Source: Acidobacteriota bacterium (lineage in GTDB: Bacteria > Acidobacteriota > Terriglobia > Terriglobales > SCQP01). Taken from it: 64,000 nucleotides of DNA. The position numbers were made by a program, and so were the translations under genes. Below are positions 3,883 through 22,391 of this stretch, piece by piece (the first letter of the stretch is position 1; every line of letters begins with the position of its first letter). The DNA is taken from contig JAJYIU010000019.1 of the NCBI GenBank assembly GCA_021789895.1, forward strand, positions 2,523 through 66,522, given 5' to 3'. The notes beneath the pieces were generated by a model, which made no database searches, had not been told where the DNA came from, and saw only the letters and a list, made by a program, of their open reading frames with translations.

Positions 3883-4512
3883 TTAAGGCGTCGGCGTCGT
3901 GCTAAGTTGCTTTTGCGCTTTCTGCGTCAGCACCTTCACATCATCGTTGACGATCGTCTGGATGAGGGTCGCCTGCGATTGAATGATGTTCGTGAACAGG
4001 CTCAAGACCTGGCTCATCCCGCCCGGCATCTGGTCCTGCACCGCATGCACCGAAACCTGCATGCTGTAGGTGTCGTCAACAACGCTGCCAAACTGATAGG
4101 TGTTCTTATCCGTCACAGTCACCGATAAGCTGACGAACCAATTGGCCGAGGCCGAAGCGGTAATTGCAAAATCGTTGCTGAACGAATTAGAAGAGGTGCT
4201 ATGCAGTTGCACGTTAAAGTTGATGCTCATATCCTCGACCCGAATGTAAGGGATCGGGATGATGGTCAACAGCGGGACCTTGATCTCGGTATAATCCGAC
4301 AAGCCGCCTAAATTTTTATTCTGCAGCACCTGCGAAAAATCGAAGCTCACGGCCTGCAGCTTGGGCGGATTGTCCTTGGTAAACGCGAAACTCTGAATGA
4401 AGTTGGTGGTGGTGTTCGCCGCCATGGCTTGCGCGTTTACGACTGCAACCAGCGGACCTCCGATAATATCTTTAAAATCGAGTTGAGATAATTCTCTTCC
4501 CTGAGTTAGCAT
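3883..4512 (-). CDS. DUF2589-like protein (family name from memory; function unknown), Ser/Thr/Asn-rich, beta-rich
   Basis: 209 aa. N-terminal helix LSQLDFKDIIGGPLVAVVNAQAMAA, then VPLLTIIPIPYIRVEDMSINFNVQL. Strong SD (GGGAGGAAG) 6 nt upstream of the ATG. Many A/T-ending codons in a GC3-rich genome. Confidence 0.8.
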   Translation of the reverse strand: MLTQGRELSQLDFKDIIGGPLVAVVNAQAMAANTTTNFIQSFAFTKDNPPKLQAVSFDFSQVLQNKNLGGLSDYTEIKVPLLTIIPIPYIRVEDMSINFNVQLHSTSSNSFSNDFAITASASANWFVSLSVTVTDKNTYQFGSVVDDTYSMQVSVHAVQDQMPGGMSQVLSLFTNIIQSQATLIQTIVNDDVKVLTQKAQKQLSTTPTP

Positions 4513-4612: not shown

Positions 4613-6712
4613 TTACGAGGCGGAATTTTTTCGCCGCAGCCGTTCCTGCAACTCGCCGGCCATGGCGGCAAACACCGCCGGCCACTGGCGCGGGCCGGGC
4701 TGGCGAAACAGCCGCAGGGTGGGGTACCAGGGGGAATCCCGGCGATCGGCAAACCAACGCCAGTCTGGCGTGTAACTCACCGCCAGCCAGACCGGACGGC
4801 CCAACGCGCCGGCCAGGTGGGCGACGGCGGAATCACTGGTGACGATCAAGTCAAGATTCATCATCGCCGCCGCCTTTTCGGCAAACGGCAAGCCCAGGTC
4901 GACAAGGGGCCAATCCTGCGCCACCTCGGAGATTTGTTCGCGGCCATAGCCGGTTTGCAGGCTGAATAGCCGGACGCCAGCCAAGCGGGCCAAGGGCGCA
5001 AATTGGGCCAGCGGGATGGAGCGGATCCGGTCTCCTTTGAACTGCGGGTTGCCCTGCCAGGCCAGGCCGAGCTTGAAGCCGGGCTGCACGCCAAGCCGGG
5101 CTTTCCATTCCGCCACCCGGTCCGGATCGGGCCGCAGGTAAGGAACGGCGGCAGGGAGATTATCGAGGGTCGTTTCCAACAGCCCCGGCAGGTTCATCAG
5201 GGGGGCATGGTAATCGAACCAAGGCACGTTTTGCGTCTGGTCGAGCACCAGATCTACGCCCTGGCATCCGGCAAACAGTTTGCGCAAAGGGCCAGGACAC
5301 AGCAGCAGTACGCGCCCGGCGCGCAGTTTTAGCGGCGCTGCGAAGCGTACGAACTGGATGCTATCCCCGAAGCCCTGTTCCGCGTGGAGCAGGATGCAGC
5401 GGCCATGCAGGCTTTCGCCCTGCCAAAGCGGTTGGGGAAAACGGTCGGGTGAGACATCCTTGAAGCGCCAGCGCCATTCCCACTCTTTCCAGCCTTCGCT
5501 ATAGCGCCCCTGCAGCAGCAGATGCATGCCCAGATTGACGTGGATTTCGGCATTTCCGGGCTGAATTTCCAGGGCGCGGCGGAAACAATGCTCGGCGTCG
5601 GCGAGCGCCGGGCCGCGGCGCAGCAGCGCTTGAACATGCAAGACGCCGCCGAGATTGTTCCAGGCATCGAGAAAGTCGGGCTGGCGTTGCAGCGCGAAGC
5701 GGAGGTGCGATTCGGCCTCGTCGTAGCGCTCCTGCAGCAGCAAAGCGTGGCCCAGGTTGCAATGCGTCGCGGGACGCTCCGGAGCCAACTGCAGGGCGCG
5801 TTGCAGGCAGGCCAGCGATTCCTTCCAGCGGCGCCGATCGGAGAGGACGATGCCCAGCAGATCGAGCGCTTCCACGCAATCCGGCCGGCGGCGCAACACC
5901 GAGCGGAGACACGCTTCCGCCTCCGGCAAGCGCCGCAGTTCGCGAAGCGCCTTGGCGAGATTCAATTGCGCTGCGTTGAACTCCGGCGACAGCTCCAACG
6001 CCCGGCGGAAATAAGGCTCCGCCTGCGTGGTTTTACCCATCGCTTGCAACTGCGCGCCAAGATTGTTTTGGGCCTCGCAGGAATCCGGCTGCAACTCGGC
6101 CAGGCGCTGGAAATGGCGCAAGGCGGCTTCCGGACGGCCGAGCGTCCGCAGCAGATGGCTCATGCGGTCATGCGCTTCGGCGCAGTCGGGCTGCAATTCG
6201 AGCACCGACTGGTAGGCGGACAGCGCCGGCTCGGCGCGGCCCATCGAATCCAGGCATATCCCCAACCCCATCCAGGCCGGGACGAACCCGGGACGCAATT
6301 TTAGGGCGCGGCGATACACCGCCGCAGCGCGGCGCAGCATGCCGCGCTCGCGAAGCAGGTTGGCCAGGTTACAGTGCGCCTCTGCGAAATCGGCCTCGAG
6401 ACGAACCGCCTCGCGGTAGCAGGCGGCAGCGCGATCCACCTGTCCCAGCTTGCGATACACCACCCCCAAATCGTTGTGATAGCTGGCCACCCGGGACTGG
6501 AGTTGAATCGCGCGGCCAAGGAGCTGGACGGCGTTCTCGGGCGAGCCGAGTTGAGCGGCAATCAGCCCGAGTAGATGCAGCGCGGGGTGATTGCGCGGAT
6601 CCGCGGCTAAAATCTGCGCGCACAACTCGGCAGCCGGCTGCCAGCGCCCCGCCCGATGCAAGTGCACGGCCTGAGCCAAAAGCCCGTCTAAAGCTGTATC
6701 CATCGCCTCCAT
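4613..6712 (-). CDS. TPR-repeat protein fused to a GT9 (heptosyltransferase-type) glycosyltransferase domain
   Basis: ORF 4613..6964, start moved to MEAMDTALDG (ATG 6712) downstream of the Sel1 gene stop. About 400 aa of TPR repeats (AEAHCNLANLL, AEAHDRMSHLL, CEAQNNLGAQL ...). C-terminal GT9-like motifs EQGFGDSIQFVRF, LGLAWQGNPQFKGDRIRSIPL, VTSDSAVAHLAGALGRPVW. Confidence 0.8.
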   Translation of the reverse strand: MEAMDTALDGLLAQAVHLHRAGRWQPAAELCAQILAADPRNHPALHLLGLIAAQLGSPENAVQLLGRAIQLQSRVASYHNDLGVVYRKLGQVDRAAACYREAVRLEADFAEAHCNLANLLRERGMLRRAAAVYRRALKLRPGFVPAWMGLGICLDSMGRAEPALSAYQSVLELQPDCAEAHDRMSHLLRTLGRPEAALRHFQRLAELQPDSCEAQNNLGAQLQAMGKTTQAEPYFRRALELSPEFNAAQLNLAKALRELRRLPEAEACLRSVLRRRPDCVEALDLLGIVLSDRRRWKESLACLQRALQLAPERPATHCNLGHALLLQERYDEAESHLRFALQRQPDFLDAWNNLGGVLHVQALLRRGPALADAEHCFRRALEIQPGNAEIHVNLGMHLLLQGRYSEGWKEWEWRWRFKDVSPDRFPQPLWQGESLHGRCILLHAEQGFGDSIQFVRFAAPLKLRAGRVLLLCPGPLRKLFAGCQGVDLVLDQTQNVPWFDYHAPLMNLPGLLETTLDNLPAAVPYLRPDPDRVAEWKARLGVQPGFKLGLAWQGNPQFKGDRIRSIPLAQFAPLARLAGVRLFSLQTGYGREQISEVAQDWPLVDLGLPFAEKAAAMMNLDLIVTSDSAVAHLAGALGRPVWLAVSYTPDWRWFADRRDSPWYPTLRLFRQPGPRQWPAVFAAMAGELQERLRRKNSAS

Positions 6713-6795: not shown

Positions 6796-8019
6796 TCAGG
6801 TCGCGTCCGCTCCCAAGCCGCTCTCTTGCAGCCGTTGGATGGCCAGGCTGGCATTCTGCGCCAGCGCGGCGCGCCGGGGATCGTTTTGGGTAAGCGCATA
6901 GCAGCGATGAAACCAAGCCAGGGCCTGCTGCCGGTCCGGCGCGGTGCCAAGGCCGTGGGCGCATTGGTAGCCCAGGTTATATTGCGCCTCGGCGCAATGC
7001 TGGCTCGCCGCCGCCTGATTCCAGCGCAAGGCGGCATCGTAGTCCTGCAACTCGTGAAGATAGATCTGGCCGAGCAGAAACTGCGCCTGCTGAGCTCCCT
7101 GCAACGCTGCTTTTTGCAGCCAGTACACCGCCTGCTGCAGATCGCGTTCCAGGCGCGACCCCTCGTATAGCACCGAGCCCAGCAGAATCTGCGCCTCAAG
7201 CAAACCTGCTTCCGCGGCGCGGCACATGCCATCCCGAAACTTCTCCGCATCCGGGGCGGCGCCCAGGCCCTGGGCATAGATCAAGCCAAGATAATAATCC
7301 GCTGGCGGATGGCCTTTCGCCGCGGCGCGTTCCAGCCACTCCCGGCTGCGGAGGGGGTCGGCGGCGACGCCCCGGCCCGACAGATAGCATTTGCCGAGCT
7401 CGAACTCAGCCAGCATGAAGCCTTCGCCGGCGGCTTGGGTCAGCCAATGAACCGCTTGCACCTCGTTGCGCTCGACGCCTTTACCCTGCAGATACAACAG
7501 CGCCAGCGAATATTGGGCTTCGCAGATACCCTTTTCCGCCGCCCGCCGATACCAGCGTTGGGCCTGGCCGAGATCCGCCTCCGTGCCGATTCCATCTTCG
7601 TAGAGCCGGCCCAGCGGGGCTGCCGCTTTCACGAAATCGTCTTCGGCGGCTGCGCGCAGCCATTGAAAAGCCTGCGCCTCGTCTTTTTCTACTCCCGTGC
7701 CGGAAAGCAGCAGCGAGGCCAGATTGATGCGCGCCTGCGGATGTCCGTGCTGCGCCGCGCGTTGATACCAAGCCGCAGCCTGAGTCAGATCCTGGGGCAG
7801 CGCCGCGCCGAATTGACTGCACTGGCCCAGCATAAACTCGGCCTCGCGCTCCCCGCCGGCCGCCGCCCGTTTCCACCAGCAGACGGCTTGGGCGCGATCC
7901 TCGGGTTCCGGCCCGCGGCTGAACAGCAGCAACCCCAGCGCGTATTGCGCCTTGGCATTGCCGGCTTCCGCGGCTTGCGCCAGTTGTTCCAGATCGTCGT
8001 GGTGCTCATTCGCGTTCAT
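6796..8019 (-). CDS. Sel1-like repeat (SLR) protein
   Basis: 407 aa with at least 8 SLR units (AQYALGLLLF, AEFMLGQC, AQYSLALLYLQGKGVERN, AEFELGKCYLSGRGV, ADYYLGLIYAQGLG, AQILLGSVLYEGSRLERD, AQFLLGQIY, AQYNLGYQCAHGLG). No signal peptide. Confidence 0.85.
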   Translation of the reverse strand: MNANEHHDDLEQLAQAAEAGNAKAQYALGLLLFSRGPEPEDRAQAVCWWKRAAAGGEREAEFMLGQCSQFGAALPQDLTQAAAWYQRAAQHGHPQARINLASLLLSGTGVEKDEAQAFQWLRAAAEDDFVKAAAPLGRLYEDGIGTEADLGQAQRWYRRAAEKGICEAQYSLALLYLQGKGVERNEVQAVHWLTQAAGEGFMLAEFELGKCYLSGRGVAADPLRSREWLERAAAKGHPPADYYLGLIYAQGLGAAPDAEKFRDGMCRAAEAGLLEAQILLGSVLYEGSRLERDLQQAVYWLQKAALQGAQQAQFLLGQIYLHELQDYDAALRWNQAAASQHCAEAQYNLGYQCAHGLGTAPDRQQALAWFHRCYALTQNDPRRAALAQNASLAIQRLQESGLGADAT

Positions 8020-8036: not shown

Positions 8037-8828
8037 TTAGCTTCCCAAGGTGTATATTTTCTGGCTATTTTTCTCACTCACGATCCACCGGAGATCGGAG
8101 GGATTGATGGTGATCTTGATCTTATTCAACAACGCGGTGTCCAGCTTTCCGAGATCCGCCGTACCCACAAGCACGTTCAGTGCCATCGGCGCCGGTGCGC
8201 CCGGCGCCTGCTGCGCTCCCTGCAGCGAGCGCAGCATTGCCGCGATCCTGGACTCGATCAGTTTTTGCAGGGGAACGGTCTCGGACTCCGGCTTCACCCC
8301 CTGCGCCAGCCAGAAGGGTGAGGGCTTTACCAGGAGGAGTAGCAGCGGGGCCACTGCCGGTTTCTGCTCCTCTGCGGCAGTTTCATAAAAGTAATTTTGT
8401 ACGCTCAAGGCAAGACTGTGCGCCAGGTCCACAGGATCGGATGCCGGCCGGGAAAGGATCTGCGCAAAACGCTGACTCATGCTTGCCAGGCCTGCCTTCC
8501 AGCGTGCCTGGAGCGGCGCATTCTGGCTGAAGTAATCTTTGAACTCCGGCTGGCTGGGAAAACTGCTCAGTAAATCCTGTAGTTGATAGGTAAGGTTTTT
8601 TTGCACTTCGTCATCTTCGAGGAATGAAGCCGATTCCAGCTTGGAAGCGACCCCGAAGTTCAACTCCATCTCGACGTCGCGCAACTGCATCCGCGGCACC
8701 GGAAAGCCTTTCAACAGCTCATTTTGCAAATAGCCTTCGGCAATGTGAACCGAGGCCCCGTCGCTCATCTGGCGCGCCATCGCCAGTTGTTGCATCAAGG
8801 CTCCGATAAAGGACTCGAGGGTGATCAT
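8037..8828 (-). CDS. DUF2589-like paralog (longer, 263 aa), function unknown
   Basis: N-terminus MITLESFIGALMQQLAMARQM ... GFPVPRMQLRDVEMELNFGV parallels the helix and PIPYIRVEDMSINFNV segment of 3883..4512. Lies 17 bp upstream of the Sel1 gene. Confidence 0.75.
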   Translation of the reverse strand: MITLESFIGALMQQLAMARQMSDGASVHIAEGYLQNELLKGFPVPRMQLRDVEMELNFGVASKLESASFLEDDEVQKNLTYQLQDLLSSFPSQPEFKDYFSQNAPLQARWKAGLASMSQRFAQILSRPASDPVDLAHSLALSVQNYFYETAAEEQKPAVAPLLLLLVKPSPFWLAQGVKPESETVPLQKLIESRIAAMLRSLQGAQQAPGAPAPMALNVLVGTADLGKLDTALLNKIKITINPSDLRWIVSEKNSQKIYTLGS

Positions 8829-9083: not shown

Positions 9084-12404
<3,321 letters not shown>

Positions 12405-12506
12405 AGAGCATCCTCGAGCCAGGCATCCGCGGGGCGAAAACGCCGGCGGGGGAAATAAAGAAAAATTTTAAACAGGAATGGGCGCCGGGAAAGCAGACAG
12501 GCCGGC

Positions 12507-13682
12507 TCACGCGTCCCCACCCGCGGCTTTCCAGTCGCGCATCATGCGGACGAAATCGGCAAACAGGTAATGCGAATCGTGGGGGCCGGGCGAGGCCTCG
12601 GGGTGGTACTGGACGCTATAGAGCGGAAGGGAGCGGTGGCGCAGGCCCTCGAGGGTGCCGTCGTTGAGGTCGAAGTGGGTCAACTCGACCTCGGCGGCGG
12701 GCAAGGAATCGGGATCCACGGCGAAATTATGATTGTGGGCGGTGATTTCGATGCGCCCGGTCGCGTTGTGGCGGACGGGGTGGTTGCCGCCGTGGTGCCC
12801 GAACTTCAGCTTGTAGGTACGGCCGCCGAGCGCCAGGCCAACGAGCTGATGACCAAGGCAGATGCCGAAGATGGGCGCGCGGCCCATCAGCTTGCGTATG
12901 GTTTGCCGGGCATAATCCACCGGCTCGGGATCGCCGGGGCCGTTGGAAAGAAAGATGCCGTCGGGCTTGAGCGCGAGCACGTCTTCGGCCGAGGTGGCGG
13001 CGGGAACGACGCGCACGCGGCAGCCGTGGGCGGCGAGCTGGCGGAGGATATTGCGCTTGATGCCGAAATCGTAGGCGACGACCCGCAGCGCGTCTTCTCC
13101 GGGCGCGACGGCGGGAGCGTGTTCGGGAATGTCATCGCCCAGCGCCTGGCTCCAGTCATAGCCGGCGTGGGTAGTAACTGCTTTGGCCAGGTCGAGCCCG
13201 ACCATGGGCGGCACGGCGCGGGCGCGATCCCGCCAGGATTCGAGGGCGGCGGAGTGGTGGGGATCGAAGCCGGCGGCCTCGGGGCCGTGCAGCAGATAGC
13301 CGCGCTTGACGCCCTGGGATCGAAGATGGCGGACGAGGGCGCGGGTATCTATGTCGGACAGGACGGGGACGCGGTGGCGCTCGAGGTAGGCCTGGCAGGC
13401 TTCCTGGCTGCGCCAGTTGCTGGCCAGGCGGGAAAACTCGCGCACGATCAGGGCTTCGATATAGGGGTGGTCGGCTTCGTCATCCCAGACATTGGCGCCA
13501 TAGTTGCCGATCTGGGGCTGGGTGAGGCAGACCATCTGGCCGGCGTAGGAAGGATCGGTGAAGATTTCCTGGTAGCCGGTCATGGAAGTATTGAACACCA
13601 CTTCCCCGCCCCGTCCGGTTTGGGCGCCAAAGCCCTGGCCGCGGAACCAGCGTCCATCTTCCAGTACCAGGAATGCTTCCAT
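12507..13682 (-). CDS. carA: Carbamoyl-phosphate synthase small (glutamine amidotransferase) subunit
   Basis: ORF 12507..13823, start moved to [19 protein letters not shown] (ATG 13682, SD GGAGG). Motifs [35 protein letters not shown]. Confidence 0.95.
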
Positions 13683-13714
13683 TTGCCTCCGCGCGGCGGC
13701 GCGCCGCCGGAAAT

Positions 13715-13720
13715 ATTTTA
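13715..13720 (-). promoter_or_regulatory. Candidate -10 box TAAAAT upstream of carA
   Basis: Minus strand gtctgcTAAAATatttcc, about 33 nt upstream of ATG 13682. Followed by the 16-nt palindrome cggcggcgcgccgccg and then the SD. The -35 is weak. Confidence 0.25.
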
Positions 13721-14075
13721 GCAGACGGCAGGCAAGGCCAAACCGAAAGATGAAAGCGAACGAGCGCAGTCGCCAGGATGAAATGGAACCGGCGGCGGCA
13801 TTGTCCGAAGCGCGATATTGCATCCACGCCGGAATTGTTGTTTACTGTTCCTACACTAGGAAAGGAGGTGGTCCAGTGGACGAAACAGGCAGTCGAATTT
13901 GGACTAGTGAGGTGGCTGAGGCTTAGGCGCTCGCATGCGCCTCGACGCCTTGGTAATCCGGCGCGCCCCGCAAGGGCGCGGCGGAGGCCGCGATCGGTAC
14001 ATGTGACCGCCTCGGCCAATCCCAACAGTACACCGCCCCGCAGCGATTCGCCACGGCGCATCCTTCGGGCTATCC

Positions 14076-17808: not shown

Positions 17809-18009
17809 TCAGCCGCCGCCGACAAACTGCACGATTTCCAGCCGGTCGTTTTCAGCCAGCCGGCGCGCGCTCCACTCCGCGCGCGGCGCCAGCTCGCGAT
17901 TCAATTCCACTGCCACGCGCGCGGGCGGCAGGCCCAGTTGGGCGAGCAATTCGGCGATGGTGGGCTCGCCGGCGATTTCCTTTTCGGCGCCATTGACGAA
18001 GATGCGCAT
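17809..18009 (-). CDS. thiS: ThiS/MoaD-type sulfur-carrier protein
   Basis: ORF 17809..18048, start moved to MRIFVNG (ATG 18009). 66 aa ending ...[12 protein letters not shown]. Confidence 0.8.
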
Positions 18010-18065
18010 ACCAGCGTGTCGGCAGGGGAACAGGCCCGCCTTTTTCAATTATTGCAGGACGGCTG

Positions 18066-18341
18066 TCACAGACGTTCGAGCAGACAGATGGTGACCGAAT
18101 CGCCGGCCCGCTTACCGAGCTGGCGGCGCAGGCTCGCCTTAATGGGCAGCTTATGGGTGCCGTCGCCGAGAGCCATGAACGAACTTTGGAAGGGAAGGCC
18201 GTCCACGGTGCCGCGAACTTTGACCAGGCCGCGGGTTTGAAAAACCTTGGTTGATTTCGGCCAGACGACATAAGTCCATCCGCCCTTGGCGGGACTGGTT
18301 TGCAATCGGGCCCGGAAGCGCAGGTTGAGCATGGAGCGCAT
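18066..18341 (-). CDS. DUF1905 domain protein
   Basis: [11 protein letters not shown]...[48 protein letters not shown] matches the DUF1905 pattern. Confidence 0.75.
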
Positions 18342-18364
18342 TCTCCTCTTTTATACTGAATTTT

Positions 18365-19705
18365 ATGACTTCGCGCCTCGAGCTGCTGGCAACCGCGATT
18401 GCCGCCCATCCCACGCTGCCGCGCGAGGCGGTGGTGAAGGAAGACCTGCTGCGCACCGGCATCGCCTTCAGCCCGGCGGCGCTCAAGCTGGCAGCCCAGT
18501 TCAAGAAGAAAGCCTACTTCATTTTTTCCTTCGATCTGGTGCCGCTGGCCGAGATGGAAAAGGGCGAGCACTGGCACGCTCCGGAAGAGCTGTGGCTGGA
18601 GGGCGGCGGCTGGGGGTTCCGGCCGACGGTGGTTTCGGTGCGGCTGAACCCGGCCTCGCCGTACCGGGTGGAGGCGGAGGAGGGCGCGGCGGTGCTGCGG
18701 GTGGAGGGCGAGGAACTGGCGCGGGTTAAATTTCCTCCGGTGCCGGAGTACTACAACCGCGCGCTCGCCAGCGGCAAGCGGGTGATCGAAATTGCGCCGA
18801 CGATCGAGTGGGGCTACCTGATATACCTGACCGTCTTTCGCATTTGCCAATACTGGGGCGACAAGGAAGAGTGCCAGTTCTGCGATATCAATGAGAACTA
18901 CCGCCAACAGACCAGGGCCGGGCGGCCCTACACCGGGGTGAAATCGGTGGAAGAGATTCTGGAGGCGCTCGAGATCATCGCCTCGACCGACGCCGCCAGC
19001 CGCGCCTATACCATCACTGGCGGCAGCATCACCTCGGAACTGAAGGGGCAGACGGAGGTGGAGTTTTATTCCGCCTACGCGGCGGCGATCGAAGCCCGCT
19101 TCCCCAACCGTTGGATCGGCAAGATGGTGGCGCAGGCGCTGCCGAAAGCGCTGGCGCGGCGCTATCAAGACGCCGGAATCAAGATCTACCATCCCAATTA
19201 CGAGGTGTGGGACGCGCGGCTGTTCCGCCAGTTCTGCCCGGGCAAGGAGCGCAGCATCGGGCGGGAGGAATGGATGCGGCGCATTCTGGACGCCGGCGAG
19301 ATCTTCGGCCCGGCGTGCGTGATCCCAAACTTCGTCGCCGGCATCGAGATGGCGCGTCCCGACGGCTACGAGCGGGTGGAAGACGCGATCCGCTCGACGG
19401 CGGAGGGCCTGGAATACTTCATGTCGCGCGGCATCTCGCCGCGCTTCACCACCTGGTGCCCGGAGCCGTTAACGACGCTGGGGCGGGCGAATCCGGAAGG
19501 CGCGCCGTTGGAATACCATTGCCGGCTGCTGGAAACCTGGCGCGACACCCACGCCCGGCATCATCTGGCGGTGCCGCCCGGCTATGGCGATCCGGGGTTG
19601 GGGCGGGCGGTGTTTTCGGTCAGCTCGTTCATGGATGTGATCTCGCCCGCAGCCCCGCCGCCGCCGGCGCTGTTGCCGGCCAGCGGCGTTCCCGCCAGCG
19701 TCTGA
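18365..19705 (+). CDS. Radical-SAM-like enzyme with non-canonical CX8CX2C cluster loop
   Basis: 446 aa. IYLTVFRICQYWGDKEECQFCDINENYR follows a beta-strand as in radical-SAM cores. Downstream are VEEILEALE and YTITGGS (GGE-like). No canonical CX3CX2C. Confidence 0.65.
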   Translation: MTSRLELLATAIAAHPTLPREAVVKEDLLRTGIAFSPAALKLAAQFKKKAYFIFSFDLVPLAEMEKGEHWHAPEELWLEGGGWGFRPTVVSVRLNPASPYRVEAEEGAAVLRVEGEELARVKFPPVPEYYNRALASGKRVIEIAPTIEWGYLIYLTVFRICQYWGDKEECQFCDINENYRQQTRAGRPYTGVKSVEEILEALEIIASTDAASRAYTITGGSITSELKGQTEVEFYSAYAAAIEARFPNRWIGKMVAQALPKALARRYQDAGIKIYHPNYEVWDARLFRQFCPGKERSIGREEWMRRILDAGEIFGPACVIPNFVAGIEMARPDGYERVEDAIRSTAEGLEYFMSRGISPRFTTWCPEPLTTLGRANPEGAPLEYHCRLLETWRDTHARHHLAVPPGYGDPGLGRAVFSVSSFMDVISPAAPPPPALLPASGVPASV

Positions 19706-19721: not shown

Positions 19722-20729
19722 TTACCGGGCGCCGGCTGCCGCGGCGATTTTTTGCAAGCGGGCCCAGGCCGGCCAGAGCTGCCAGGAGCGGGCGGCGAAA
19801 AATTTCCGCGGAAAAAATTCGCGCGCCTGGCGCGGAGTGAGCGCATGCGCCCAGGCGGAGCGGCGGGCGGACCGGGCGCCGGGCCCGGTGGATCCATATT
19901 CGCCGTACCAGGCGGTGCGCTGAATGGCGGGGTTGCGCCAATCATCCCAACCCACGCGGCGCAAGCCGCGGCCCAGGTAACAATCGAGGTAAACCACGCG
20001 CGAGCAGCGCCGCCAGGGACGGCCCAGGAAAGCGCCGGGGCCAACGCGCGGGCCGGCGATGCGGCAGCGGTAAAACACAAATCCGGTCGAGGCGGCGGGA
20101 GAACGGCGGCTCTGGGCAGTAATATAGCCGCGGCCGATGGCGGCAATGCGGCAGTGATCGAACACCGCGGCGGCATTGCCGAAGATGAAATCCACCGCGC
20201 CCTGAATGTAGCAATCGCGGTAATATTGCGCGCCGCTGGCGGCATAGAGCGTGTCTTGGTAGCCGAGCAGGCGGCAGCGGTCGAGCACAACGCGGCCGGC
20301 ATGCAGTGAGAGCGCGACCGCTTGCGAACCGGGCCCGAAGGAGTTGGCGATGGTCAGGTTGACAGCTTCGAAACCGCGGCCTTCGACGTCCACGGTGCTG
20401 CTGAAGAAGGTGCCGCCGGCGCGCCGGGCGGACATGTTGTACGTCAAGACGGTATCTTGCGGGCGGGCGCCGAGGCCGAGAAGGGTCACGCGCGGGCGGT
20501 CGCGGGGAATCGAGACGCGTCCGAAATAAACGCCCGGCTTGATGGCGACGATCAGCCGGCGCTCGCCCTGGGCATTGTCGGGAGCGTGATCCATCGCCTG
20601 CTGCACGGTGCGGTAATCTCCGCTGCCATCGGCCGCCACCACGACTCGGATCGGCTTCGGCGCAAGCCGCGCGGCGCCCGCGCAGCGCGCCAGCGAGCAC
20701 AACGTCAACAGCCAAAAGATCCGCCGCAT
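19722..20729 (-). CDS. Pectinesterase (CE8), secreted
   Basis: ORF 19722..20804, start moved to MRRIFWLLTLCSLARCAGA. Motifs DGSGDYRTVQQAMD, QAVALS, GYQDTLY, DFIFG. Confidence 0.9.
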   Translation of the reverse strand: MRRIFWLLTLCSLARCAGAARLAPKPIRVVVAADGSGDYRTVQQAMDHAPDNAQGERRLIVAIKPGVYFGRVSIPRDRPRVTLLGLGARPQDTVLTYNMSARRAGGTFFSSTVDVEGRGFEAVNLTIANSFGPGSQAVALSLHAGRVVLDRCRLLGYQDTLYAASGAQYYRDCYIQGAVDFIFGNAAAVFDHCRIAAIGRGYITAQSRRSPAASTGFVFYRCRIAGPRVGPGAFLGRPWRRCSRVVYLDCYLGRGLRRVGWDDWRNPAIQRTAWYGEYGSTGPGARSARRSAWAHALTPRQAREFFPRKFFAARSWQLWPAWARLQKIAAAAGAR

Positions 20730-20739
20730 GCGGGTAAGC

Positions 20740-21273
20740 TTACCAGCCCTGGCGGCGGCGCAAGGTGGTGATATGGGCGGAGTGATGGCGCCCATGCCAG
20801 GCATAAAGACCTAGCATGCGGTCGAGCGGCATCCGCCCGTTGACGGGATGTTCGAGCTGGCGCTCGAAATCGGCGGGCGCGAGCGAGGCAAGCAGCAGCG
20901 ACAGGCGGCGGTGCAGGGCGTCGAGCAGATCGAGCGAGAGCTCGACCGGAGCGGAGGCGGCGTCGGCGAGTCCGGCCCACAGCTTTTCGTCATAAACGAA
21001 GATGCGCGGCGTGGTTTCGGTCAGGGCCAGGCGAAAGCGGCAATAGGCATTCATGTGGCTGTCGGCGACATGATGCACGACCTGGCGAACCGTCCAGCCG
21101 CCCTCGCGATAAGCAGTATCGAGCTGCGCGGGCGTAAGCCCGCGGACGGCGGCCCGCAGCTCGCCGGGGGCGGCGGCGATCTGGGTGATCCATTCGCGAC
21201 GCAGTTCCGGGGTCGAGCCGGCATACGTATATTTCCCGATGGGATATCGCGGATCGGAGGGTTCAGGGCGCAT
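20740..21273 (-). CDS. DinB/YfiT-family metal-dependent hydrolase (bacillithiol-transferase-like fold)
   Basis: YPIGKYTY...WTVRQVVHHVADSHMNAYCRF...AWHGRHHSAHI (His triad). Confidence 0.85.
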   Translation of the reverse strand: MRPEPSDPRYPIGKYTYAGSTPELRREWITQIAAAPGELRAAVRGLTPAQLDTAYREGGWTVRQVVHHVADSHMNAYCRFRLALTETTPRIFVYDEKLWAGLADAASAPVELSLDLLDALHRRLSLLLASLAPADFERQLEHPVNGRMPLDRMLGLYAWHGRHHSAHITTLRRRQGW

Positions 21274-21311: not shown

Positions 21312-22391
21312 TCAGCGGTCCGAGTCGCCGGCGCTGGCGATCTGGACCAGCTCGCCCTCGAGCGCTTCCGGCTCGAGGTGCGGCCGCCCGGCGCCGGCCG
21401 GCTTGCCTGCGAGCGCGGGCCGCTGGCGCCCGCGCCACTGATCGAGCAGCGAGGTGTAATGGGCGCAGGCGACGGTGCAAAAGGGCGAACAGGACTTTTC
21501 GGTGAAAAACTCGCGGCGGATATCCTCGCGCGTGTAGCCGGCAAGCGGCACACCGGGGTAGCCGCGCTGCTGCGAGCAGTAATGCACCAGCCCGTTTTCG
21601 CAGATGTAGAGGTAGCGGCTGCCGGAGCGGCAGCGCCAGCGGTTGGGCAGCCCGCGGGCGATGTTGTCTTGAAAACGGTTGTAGCGGGCGAAGCTGCGCT
21701 TGCCCAGCGATTTGACCTGGCGATAGATGGCGCCGGCGCGGGCATCTAGGGGGCGAAGCTGGCCATGCCCGTCGTGGATGATGCCGACAGTGGAGATAAA
21801 CCCAAGCTCGACCGCGCGGCGGGCGATCACGAGCGCGTCTTCCGGAAGGGCCACGCCGGCGCCCAGGACCGAGTTGATATTGACGTCGAAGCGGGCGTAG
21901 GCGGCAAGCAACTCGAGCTTTTTATCGAGCACTTTGAGGCTTTTTTTCGAAACCTCGTCGGGCTGCACGTTGTCAATCGAGATTTGCAGGTAATCGAGGC
22001 CGGCCTGGTTCAGGCGCTCGATGCGCTCGCGCACGAGCAGGTAGCCGTTGGTGATGAGGCCGGCCAACATGCCGGCGCGGCGGACGGCGGCAATAATATC
22101 TTCCAGTTGCGGATGCAACAGCGGCTCGCCGCCGCTGATGGTGACCAGGCTGACGCCCAGCCCGGCCAGCTTGCGCACGCGCCGCAGCATTTCTTCGAGC
22201 GGCACCGGCTGGGATACGTCGTCGAACTCGTTGCAATAACCGCAGGCAAGGTTGCAGCGCCGCATCGGCACCATGTGAACCTGGATAGGATGCGTAGTGT
22301 CCATCAGGGCATGCGCCACGGCGCGCCACTCCCGCCAGCGGCGGGAAAGCGGTTTTTTGCGGCGGGCCCGAACGGCATCTTGAGCAGACAT
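21312..22391 (-). CDS. Radical SAM protein with C-terminal Cys-rich (SPASM/twitch-like) region
   Basis: [14 protein letters not shown] (CX3CX2C). ISGGEPLL. C-terminal [20 protein letters not shown]...CSPFCTVAC. Confidence 0.85.

Follow-up and report, generated by a model that had tools for sequence, protein, structure and literature searches.

A 64-kb window on contig JAJYIU010000019.1 of an Acidobacteriota bacterium (assembly GCA_021789895.1) contains, at 18365..19705 on the plus strand (stop codon included), a gene for a 446-amino-acid (aa) variant radical S-adenosylmethionine (SAM) protein, here called vRS. Its family membership, its gene neighborhoods and its possible role in menaquinone synthesis are the subject of this report. 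Just upstream on the minus strand lie a DUF1905 gene (18066..18341; PF08922, E 7e-20) and thiS (17809..18009, or to 18048 with the longest start; 66 aa as called; PF02597 and TIGR01683). The next gene downstream, also on the minus strand and convergent with vRS, encodes a pectinesterase (19722-20804). An earlier interpretation made from the DNA letters alone (the sequence-only reading) had drawn attention to thiS, DUF1905 and the 446-aa open reading frame (ORF), and all three were found where it had placed them. The gap of 23 bp that it gave between DUF1905 and vRS applies to the longest DUF1905 start and becomes 32 bp with the called start. With a divergent gene on its upstream side and a convergent one downstream, vRS is a stand-alone transcription unit in the window.

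Family membership, fold and cysteine loop

Searches with profile hidden Markov models, as the sequence-only reading had proposed, gave a mixed outcome. vRS passes the NCBIfam model NF045502 ("variant_rSAM") with 177.2 bits (cutoff 125, E 4.4e-52), residues 22-374 aligning to model positions 5-335 of 357. A Pfam search with the window protein returned no match at E ≤ 0.01, PF04055 and PF19288 (CofH_C) included; about half of the close vRS homologs carry a precomputed, mostly weak match to PF04055 (29.8 bits for homolog P0008, cutoff 29.5). Membership in the MSMEG_0568 family (TIGR04043), which had been suggested, was rejected: vRS scores 36.5 bits against a cutoff of 303.7. Homology to that family is distant and covers the radical SAM core (residues 96-327, E 2.7e-9); vRS belongs to another ortholog group, with another gene context. 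The models for MqnE (TIGR03700) and MqnC (TIGR03699) gave no vRS match at E ≤ 0.01, and a sequence search of the PDB found nothing at E ≤ 1.

Structural information pointed in a single direction. An AlphaFold (AF2) model of vRS built from 44 diverse homologs is confident (predicted local distance difference test score [pLDDT] 94.3, predicted template modeling score 0.93), and the top 50 Foldseek matches of this model in the PDB are all radical SAM enzymes, with a probability of 1.0. HydE ranks first (E 2e-8), followed by MgmA, MiaB, BioB, LipA, ThiH, PylB and HydG; the alignments cover about 250-310 columns, corresponding to the C-terminal core of vRS, with E values from 2e-8 to 1e-4. The model and these matches thus place in vRS the (beta/alpha) TIM-barrel core of the radical SAM superfamily. 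The full-barrel class of HydE, BioB, PylB, ThiH and HydG provides the best structural matches, but at only 12-17% identity, and vRS differs from its members in lacking auxiliary-cluster cysteines, in its longer cysteine loop and in an extra N-terminal domain. With a family model passed, a fold search that returned radical SAM enzymes only and cluster cysteines that are invariant (see below), the radical-SAM-like identity proposed from the letters alone is sustained: by sequence and model, the 446-aa protein is assigned as a radical SAM-type enzyme of the already-catalogued variant_rSAM family.

The family is large and its orthologs are closely knit. A word-indexed protein database held 2775 vRS matches, the best 120 of which are at least 62% identical, come mostly from Acidobacteriota metagenome-assembled genomes (MAGs) and are annotated as "radical SAM protein" or unnamed. 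In an exhaustive search of representatives, 759 clusters were detected at E ≤ 0.001; a single full-length representative (64% identical) stands for the ortholog cluster, and the other full-length representatives are ≤ 47% identical, most of them ≤ 42%. One tight group unites the orthologs of Acidobacteriota, Actinomycetota, Chloroflexota, Gemmatimonadota and Planctomycetota, which are 60-83% identical to one another. Conservation and gene context were assessed on 80 genome loci, with flanks of up to 6 kb, whose vRS orthologs share 60-77% identity with the window protein. Among these 80 orthologs, 154 of the 446 positions are at least 97% conserved.

The cluster loop, C161-QYWGDKEE-C170-QF-C173 (18845..18883, +; residues 161-173, CQYWGDKEECQFC), follows a beta-strand at residues 152-158 of the model. 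Its spacing is CX8CX2C, not the canonical CX3CX2C of the radical SAM superfamily that is present in the MqnC-type protein encoded next to many orthologs. C161, C170 and C173 do not vary in the 44 diverse homologs, which share 24-63% identity with the window protein, or in 80/80 orthologs, and a chance match can therefore be dismissed; the check on cysteine conservation that the sequence-only reading had called for came out in its favor. Across five phyla the loop has the consensus CQY[FW]GxKEECQ[FY]C, and the residue before the last cysteine, F172 in vRS, is F or Y in every row shown of the 44-homolog alignment.

Two further motifs complete a putative SAM site. TGGS (residues 218-221; 19016..19027, +), at the end of beta-2 and on a strand that covers residues 214-219 in the model, corresponds to the radical SAM "GGE" motif, and VAGIE (residues 324-328; 19334..19348, +) to GxIxGxxE. 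G220, P73, P292 and G299 are invariant in the 44 homologs along with the three cluster cysteines, and G219, E280, G293, K294, V324, G326 and E328 are conserved at ≥ 90%; in the 80 orthologs, V324, G326 and E328 reach ≥ 97%. Coordinates, model and conservation therefore bear out the CX8CX2C motif, the beta-strand before the cysteine loop and the TGGS that the sequence-only reading had noted. C161, C170 and C173 are the most likely ligands of the [4Fe-4S] cluster, on a loop that is five residues longer than the canonical one between the first two of them, and SAM would bind through TGGS and VAGIE inside a HydE/BioB-like barrel; for the cluster and SAM chemistry alike, motifs and model are what we infer from. 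Besides the cluster ligands, the only cysteine invariant in the orthologs is C365, in TTWCPE (19457..19459, +; 80/80). C365 is not conserved outside the ortholog group and C291 is present in only 55/80 orthologs, and with no further conserved cysteine in the wider family we found none that could serve an auxiliary cluster. C365 may be a catalytic or hydrogen-atom-transfer residue.

The N-terminal domain (residues 1-148; 18365..18808, +) is family-specific and consists of two helices and a beta-sheet module, with K25, G32, P73, P99, Y100 and G137 invariant. Its roughly 148 residues have no Pfam match. Modeled alone, the domain reaches a pLDDT of 91.7, and a fold search with it against the PDB gave no significant match (best E 0.37, TM-score ≤ 0.22). 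The description of some 140 N-terminal residues without recognizable function thus stands at the level of both Pfam and PDB folds. The domain, which probably covers the active site, may have a new fold or may serve as a cap, specific to the family, that binds substrate.

The CX8CX2C motif is not new. RadicalSAM.org catalogs it for Megaclusters 4-6-1, -3, -5 and -6, and further lists CX4, CX5, CX6, CX7, CX9 and CX11 clusters; Megacluster-4 is the biotin/thiazole-synthase subgroup and also contains the F420/menaquinone subgroup 4-2 (PMC9477430). vRS is a member of the NF045502/Megacluster-4-6 CX8CX2C group and shows no structural difference from it, and NF045502 has no assigned function or substrate. 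Our literature search (CX8CX2C, MSMEG_0568, alternatives to MqnE, and futalosine in Thermoleophilia or Ktedonobacter) returned no study of the vRS family and no paper on an mqn-linked CX8CX2C enzyme. Other departures from the canonical spacing are familiar: HmdB has CX5CX2C, ThiC CX2CX4C and the Burkholderia QueE CX14CX2C. Such enzymes resemble vRS in carrying three cysteines on the loop after beta-1, with extra residues inserted between cysteines one and two and a CxPhiC end that is kept. They are unlike vRS in their actual spacing, they belong to unrelated families, and none is known to be linked to mqn genes.

Gene neighborhoods of vRS orthologs

Gene contexts at the 80 loci were read from gene calls filtered by GC content at third codon positions, together with tblastn. 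In 36 of the 80, a CofH-family (MqnC-type) radical SAM gene lies directly downstream of vRS on the same strand. These loci derive from Thermoleophilia/Gaiellales and other Actinomycetota MAGs and include three from Ktedonobacterales/Chloroflexia; in 27 of the 36, the vRS stop and the start of the MqnC-type gene overlap by 4 bp. Scored with the MqnC equivalog model (cutoff 428.1), the Ktedonobacterales copy is a member at 442.5 bits, and the actinobacterial copies are MqnC-like but below that cutoff (294 bits for MqnC, 183 for MqnE). A PF02621 protein is encoded at 21 loci, in some of them directly upstream of vRS. These proteins are of the MqnA (chorismate dehydratase) type, matching PDB entries 7ahr/2nxo at E 1e-38 and 1e-27 versus 4e-5 for MqnD (2czl).

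At one locus (L031:5234-8345), mqnA, vRS and an mqnC-like gene are chained by start/stop overlaps of 4 bp at both junctions (5998-6001 and 7293-7296), which argues for translational coupling of the three. An independent gene call on a Ktedonobacterales contig recovered the same kind of order: TetR, PF02621 (VitK2_biosynth), vRS and Radical_SAM/CofH_C. The actinobacterial clusters also hold genes of the UbiX family (14 loci), the UbiE/MenG family (14) and cytochrome b (13), with Rieske and cytochrome c genes, and at one locus (L055) an aminofutalosine-deaminase-like amidohydrolase is encoded 1.3 kb downstream (190.8 bits, below the cutoff of 320). Between Actinomycetota and Ktedonobacterales, MqnA and MqnC are 35-40% identical and vRS is 62% identical, so the arrangement is either ancient or was assembled twice. 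No locus has a second CofH-family gene (a candidate mqnE) near vRS, and the mqn-linked clusters lack mqnB, mqnD and mqnE. In the literature, mqnEAC operons have been described in Firmicutes (PMC4746308), and MqnA, MqnC and MqnD were present in all Acidobacteria, Planctomycetes and Gemmatimonadetes proteomes examined (PMC3914697).

One further locus (L059:6001-8298, +) has the vRS ortholog and the MqnC-like gene as one uninterrupted ORF of 766 codons; at the other loci they are in different frames, with the 4-bp overlap. This ORF may be a natural vRS-MqnC fusion or an indel error, in a MAG that, judging by its name only, we take to be a long-read assembly. Among longer proteins, which were screened for Rosetta-stone fusions to Mqn domains, the only fusion found was to a GntR regulator.

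Acidobacterial loci look different. Their recurrent vRS neighbors are carAB, glmU, a gene for a tetratricopeptide repeat (TPR) protein and a 2-oxoacid:ferredoxin oxidoreductase. carA and carB lie a few kilobases from vRS in the window (9084-13823, −) and at many acidobacterial loci, and 2-oxoacid:ferredoxin oxidoreductase genes are downstream of vRS in 13 loci (L009-L013, L016, L019, L020, L024 and L030 are among the acidobacterial loci at which carA/carB or the oxidoreductase was noted). Such proximity appears to be synteny at the level of the phylum and has no evident functional significance.

More distant members of the family occur in other settings. The gene of paralog P0125 (42% identical to vRS, with CX8CX2C) overlaps the end of a UbiD-family gene (L084:1010-3788), in a cluster that reads GntR, UbiD, paralog, ABC transporter, MmgE/PrpD, AMP-binding (coenzyme A [CoA]) ligase and UbiD and that, from its gene content, looks catabolic. 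A metagenome scan with P0125 found 2 loci only. P0129 is a fusion of a GntR/FCD regulator with a paralog, and the contigs of P0128, P0143, P0183 and P0130 are too short for informative context. These settings hint at aromatic or carboxylic acids as substrates of the wider family, or at a connection with UbiD and enzymes dependent on prenylated flavin mononucleotide.

Possible role in menaquinone biosynthesis

For a radical SAM gene that lies between mqnA and mqnC, in clusters without mqnE, mqnB or mqnD, participation in the futalosine route to menaquinone is the simplest explanation. We regard such participation, to which the mqn linkage points, as a serious possibility that falls somewhat short of an even bet. 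The most plausible role for vRS would be a radical step between MqnA and MqnC, as an analog of the aminofutalosine synthase MqnE, which holds that place in the known mqnEAC operons. Among the missing steps (MqnE, MqnB and MqnD), only that of MqnE requires radical chemistry, and an MqnE-analogous role is favored for this reason; an assignment to that particular step is nevertheless doubtful. The most far-reaching interpretation, with a probability of roughly 0.3, is that vRS is a previously unrecognized futalosine enzyme, either a non-homologous replacement for MqnE or the catalyst of a new radical step acting with MqnC, in abundant soil phyla that would comprise Acidobacteriota, Thermoleophilia, Ktedonobacteria, Gemmatimonadota and Planctomycetota.

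A comparison with the known enzymes limits what such a role could mean. Like MqnE and MqnC, vRS is a predicted radical SAM enzyme, it occupies the place of mqnE between mqnA and mqnC, and the clusters of both types belong to Megacluster-4 (subgroup 4-2 for MqnE/MqnC, 4-6 for vRS). Unlike them, it has no CofH_C domain and carries its unique N-terminal domain instead, and the top 50 fold matches of the vRS model do not include the MqnE structure 6xi9. As judged from sequence, vRS could only be a functional analog of MqnE, not a homologous member of its family.

The translationally coupled place between mqnA and mqnC provides a concrete, testable hypothesis for a family that has no assigned function. 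The family is uncharacterized and strongly constrained, with a non-canonical cluster loop and an N-terminal domain without a solved structural relative. If the hypothesis is true, vRS would be one more enzyme of a pathway that is under study as an antibiotic target and supplies the respiratory quinone of dominant soil bacteria, and it would show what an extended cysteine loop does in radical SAM chemistry.

Several observations weigh against a futalosine role. The window contains no mqnA or mqnC homolog, no acidobacterial locus sampled has an mqn neighbor, and the 36 linked loci represent about two independent lineages, not 36 events. As described above, vRS also has no detectable match to the MqnE or MqnC models. 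Its scattered occurrences in Streptomyces, Micromonospora and Actinoplanes have unrelated contexts; Streptomyces normally carries a complete canonical Mqn set, and a simple essential replacement is therefore disfavored. Finally, the P0125 cluster, with its catabolic look, indicates that the superfamily is not confined to quinone synthesis.

It is accordingly quite possible, at somewhat less than even odds, that the function of vRS is unrelated to menaquinone and concerns another cofactor or modification, or aromatic-acid chemistry, with mqnA-vRS-mqnC an inherited synteny in a few lineages. This explanation would accommodate the 44/80 loci without mqn neighbors, every acidobacterial one included, and the window itself, the recurrence of carAB, glmU, TPR and oxidoreductase genes in that phylum, and the scattered copies in Actinoplanes, Micromonospora and Streptomyces. 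It would also fit the paralogs, one lying between UbiD and an ABC transporter/CoA ligase set and another fused to a GntR regulator. Inherited synteny does not readily explain the overlap with mqnC, however, which is found at 27 loci and conserved in two phyla in which MqnA and MqnC have diverged to 35-40% identity, a pattern that is hard to account for without functional coupling. In some of the overlap loci mqnA is directly upstream of vRS as well, and no alternative functional theme recurs near the gene.

Improbable, in our estimate, is a role in menaquinone synthesis at a step other than that of MqnE, whether by replacing MqnD or MqnB, by forming a complex with MqnC or by adding a step to a variant futalosine pathway. 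The link to mqnC is the tightest and most constant one (36/36 linked loci, with the 4-bp overlap in 27), one locus has the two genes as a single 766-codon ORF, and the clusters lack mqnB and mqnD just as they lack mqnE. The chemistry of MqnB and MqnD is hydrolytic or retro-aldol, though, and requires no radical; the single ORF may be an indel error, and nothing points to one particular alternative step.

We consider it very unlikely that vRS has kept a radical SAM fold with lost or changed cluster and SAM chemistry owing to its long cysteine loop, so that it would not cleave SAM. The missing PF04055 match of the window protein at E ≤ 0.01 and the departure from CX3CX2C would be expected of such a protein. 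Opposed to this are the family-wide (near-)invariance of the three cysteines, of the aromatic residue before the last of them and of the GG and V.G.E motifs, the weak PF04055 match in many close homologs, and the 154/446 ortholog positions conserved at ≥ 97%, a degree of conservation that indicates an active enzyme. Moreover, other spacings from CX4 to CX11 are cataloged in the superfamily (PMC9477430).

The thiS and DUF1905 genes and other genes in the window

The sequence-only reading had paired vRS with ThiS and DUF1905 and proposed an uncharacterized sulfur-insertion or thiocarboxylate-dependent pathway. The thiS gene itself is genuine by its scores: its product matches TIGR01683 with 78.1 bits (cutoff 37.45) as well as Pfam ThiS, and its C-terminus, ...FVGGG, has a GG-type end. 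The absence of other thiamine genes, also part of that reading, agrees with what we saw in so far as no thiG- or thiF-like gene appeared among the window genes examined, a check that was not exhaustive.

Conservation of the thiS adjacency was the test that the sequence-only reading had set for itself, with non-conservation to count as refutation, and the adjacency is not conserved. Neither ThiS nor DUF1905 was found at any of the 80 ortholog loci, by tblastn at E ≤ 1e-3 or by phmmer at E ≤ 1 over all ORFs of at least 55 aa. Within 3 kb of vRS, 0/80 loci have a credible small ORF with a GG terminus; the scan returned only Arg/Pro-rich shadow ORFs and one GNAT-like ORF. In the closest relative (L091, 86% identical), ruvC, folE, tlpA and thiS precede a vRS gene that is divergent from thiS and is followed by DinB, a radical SAM gene, lptD, lptB and rpoN; this otherwise syntenic locus lacks both DUF1905 and the pectinesterase gene. 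Because both are missing there, the DUF1905 and pectinesterase genes that flank vRS in the window are recent insertions, or were lost in L091. In a 77% identical relative the neighbors are entirely different and thiS is gone. Kept at 86% identity only and lost at 77%, the thiS adjacency is a shallow, lineage-local synteny and not a partnership.

The idea that vRS works with ThiS, as a thiocarboxylate sulfur donor, and with DUF1905 has in its favor the two divergent genes 23-32 bp upstream, the thiS gene that also adjoins vRS in the 86% identical relative, and the sulfur-handling enzymes HydE, BioB, LipA and MiaB among the best structural matches. These matches reflect a common barrel at 12-17% identity, however, not common chemistry. 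The genes, being divergent, are not co-transcribed with vRS, and over five phyla the 80 loci hold neither partner, DUF1905 being missing even from the closest relative. Sulfur-inserting enzymes of the BioB, LipA and MiaB/RimO type carry an auxiliary Fe-S cluster on additional cysteines; vRS has no such second set, and its single extra invariant cysteine, C365, would not support one. The ThiS-coupled sulfur pathway, as first proposed, does not hold, and we give it scarcely any credence.

Two other features of the window were recorded. A second radical SAM gene at 21312-22391 (−) encodes a 359-aa protein with a canonical CNLACGYC motif, whose matches to MoaA/PqqE/NirJ-type models cover only about 150 N-terminal residues and stay far below every cutoff; the gene is kept in the close relative (L091, 8175-9221). 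Two ORFs at 3883-4512 (−) and 8037-8828 (−) have a GC content at codon positions 1 and 2 markedly below that of neighboring ORFs. One of the pair is DUF2589, the other has no Pfam match, and both may be acquired genes.

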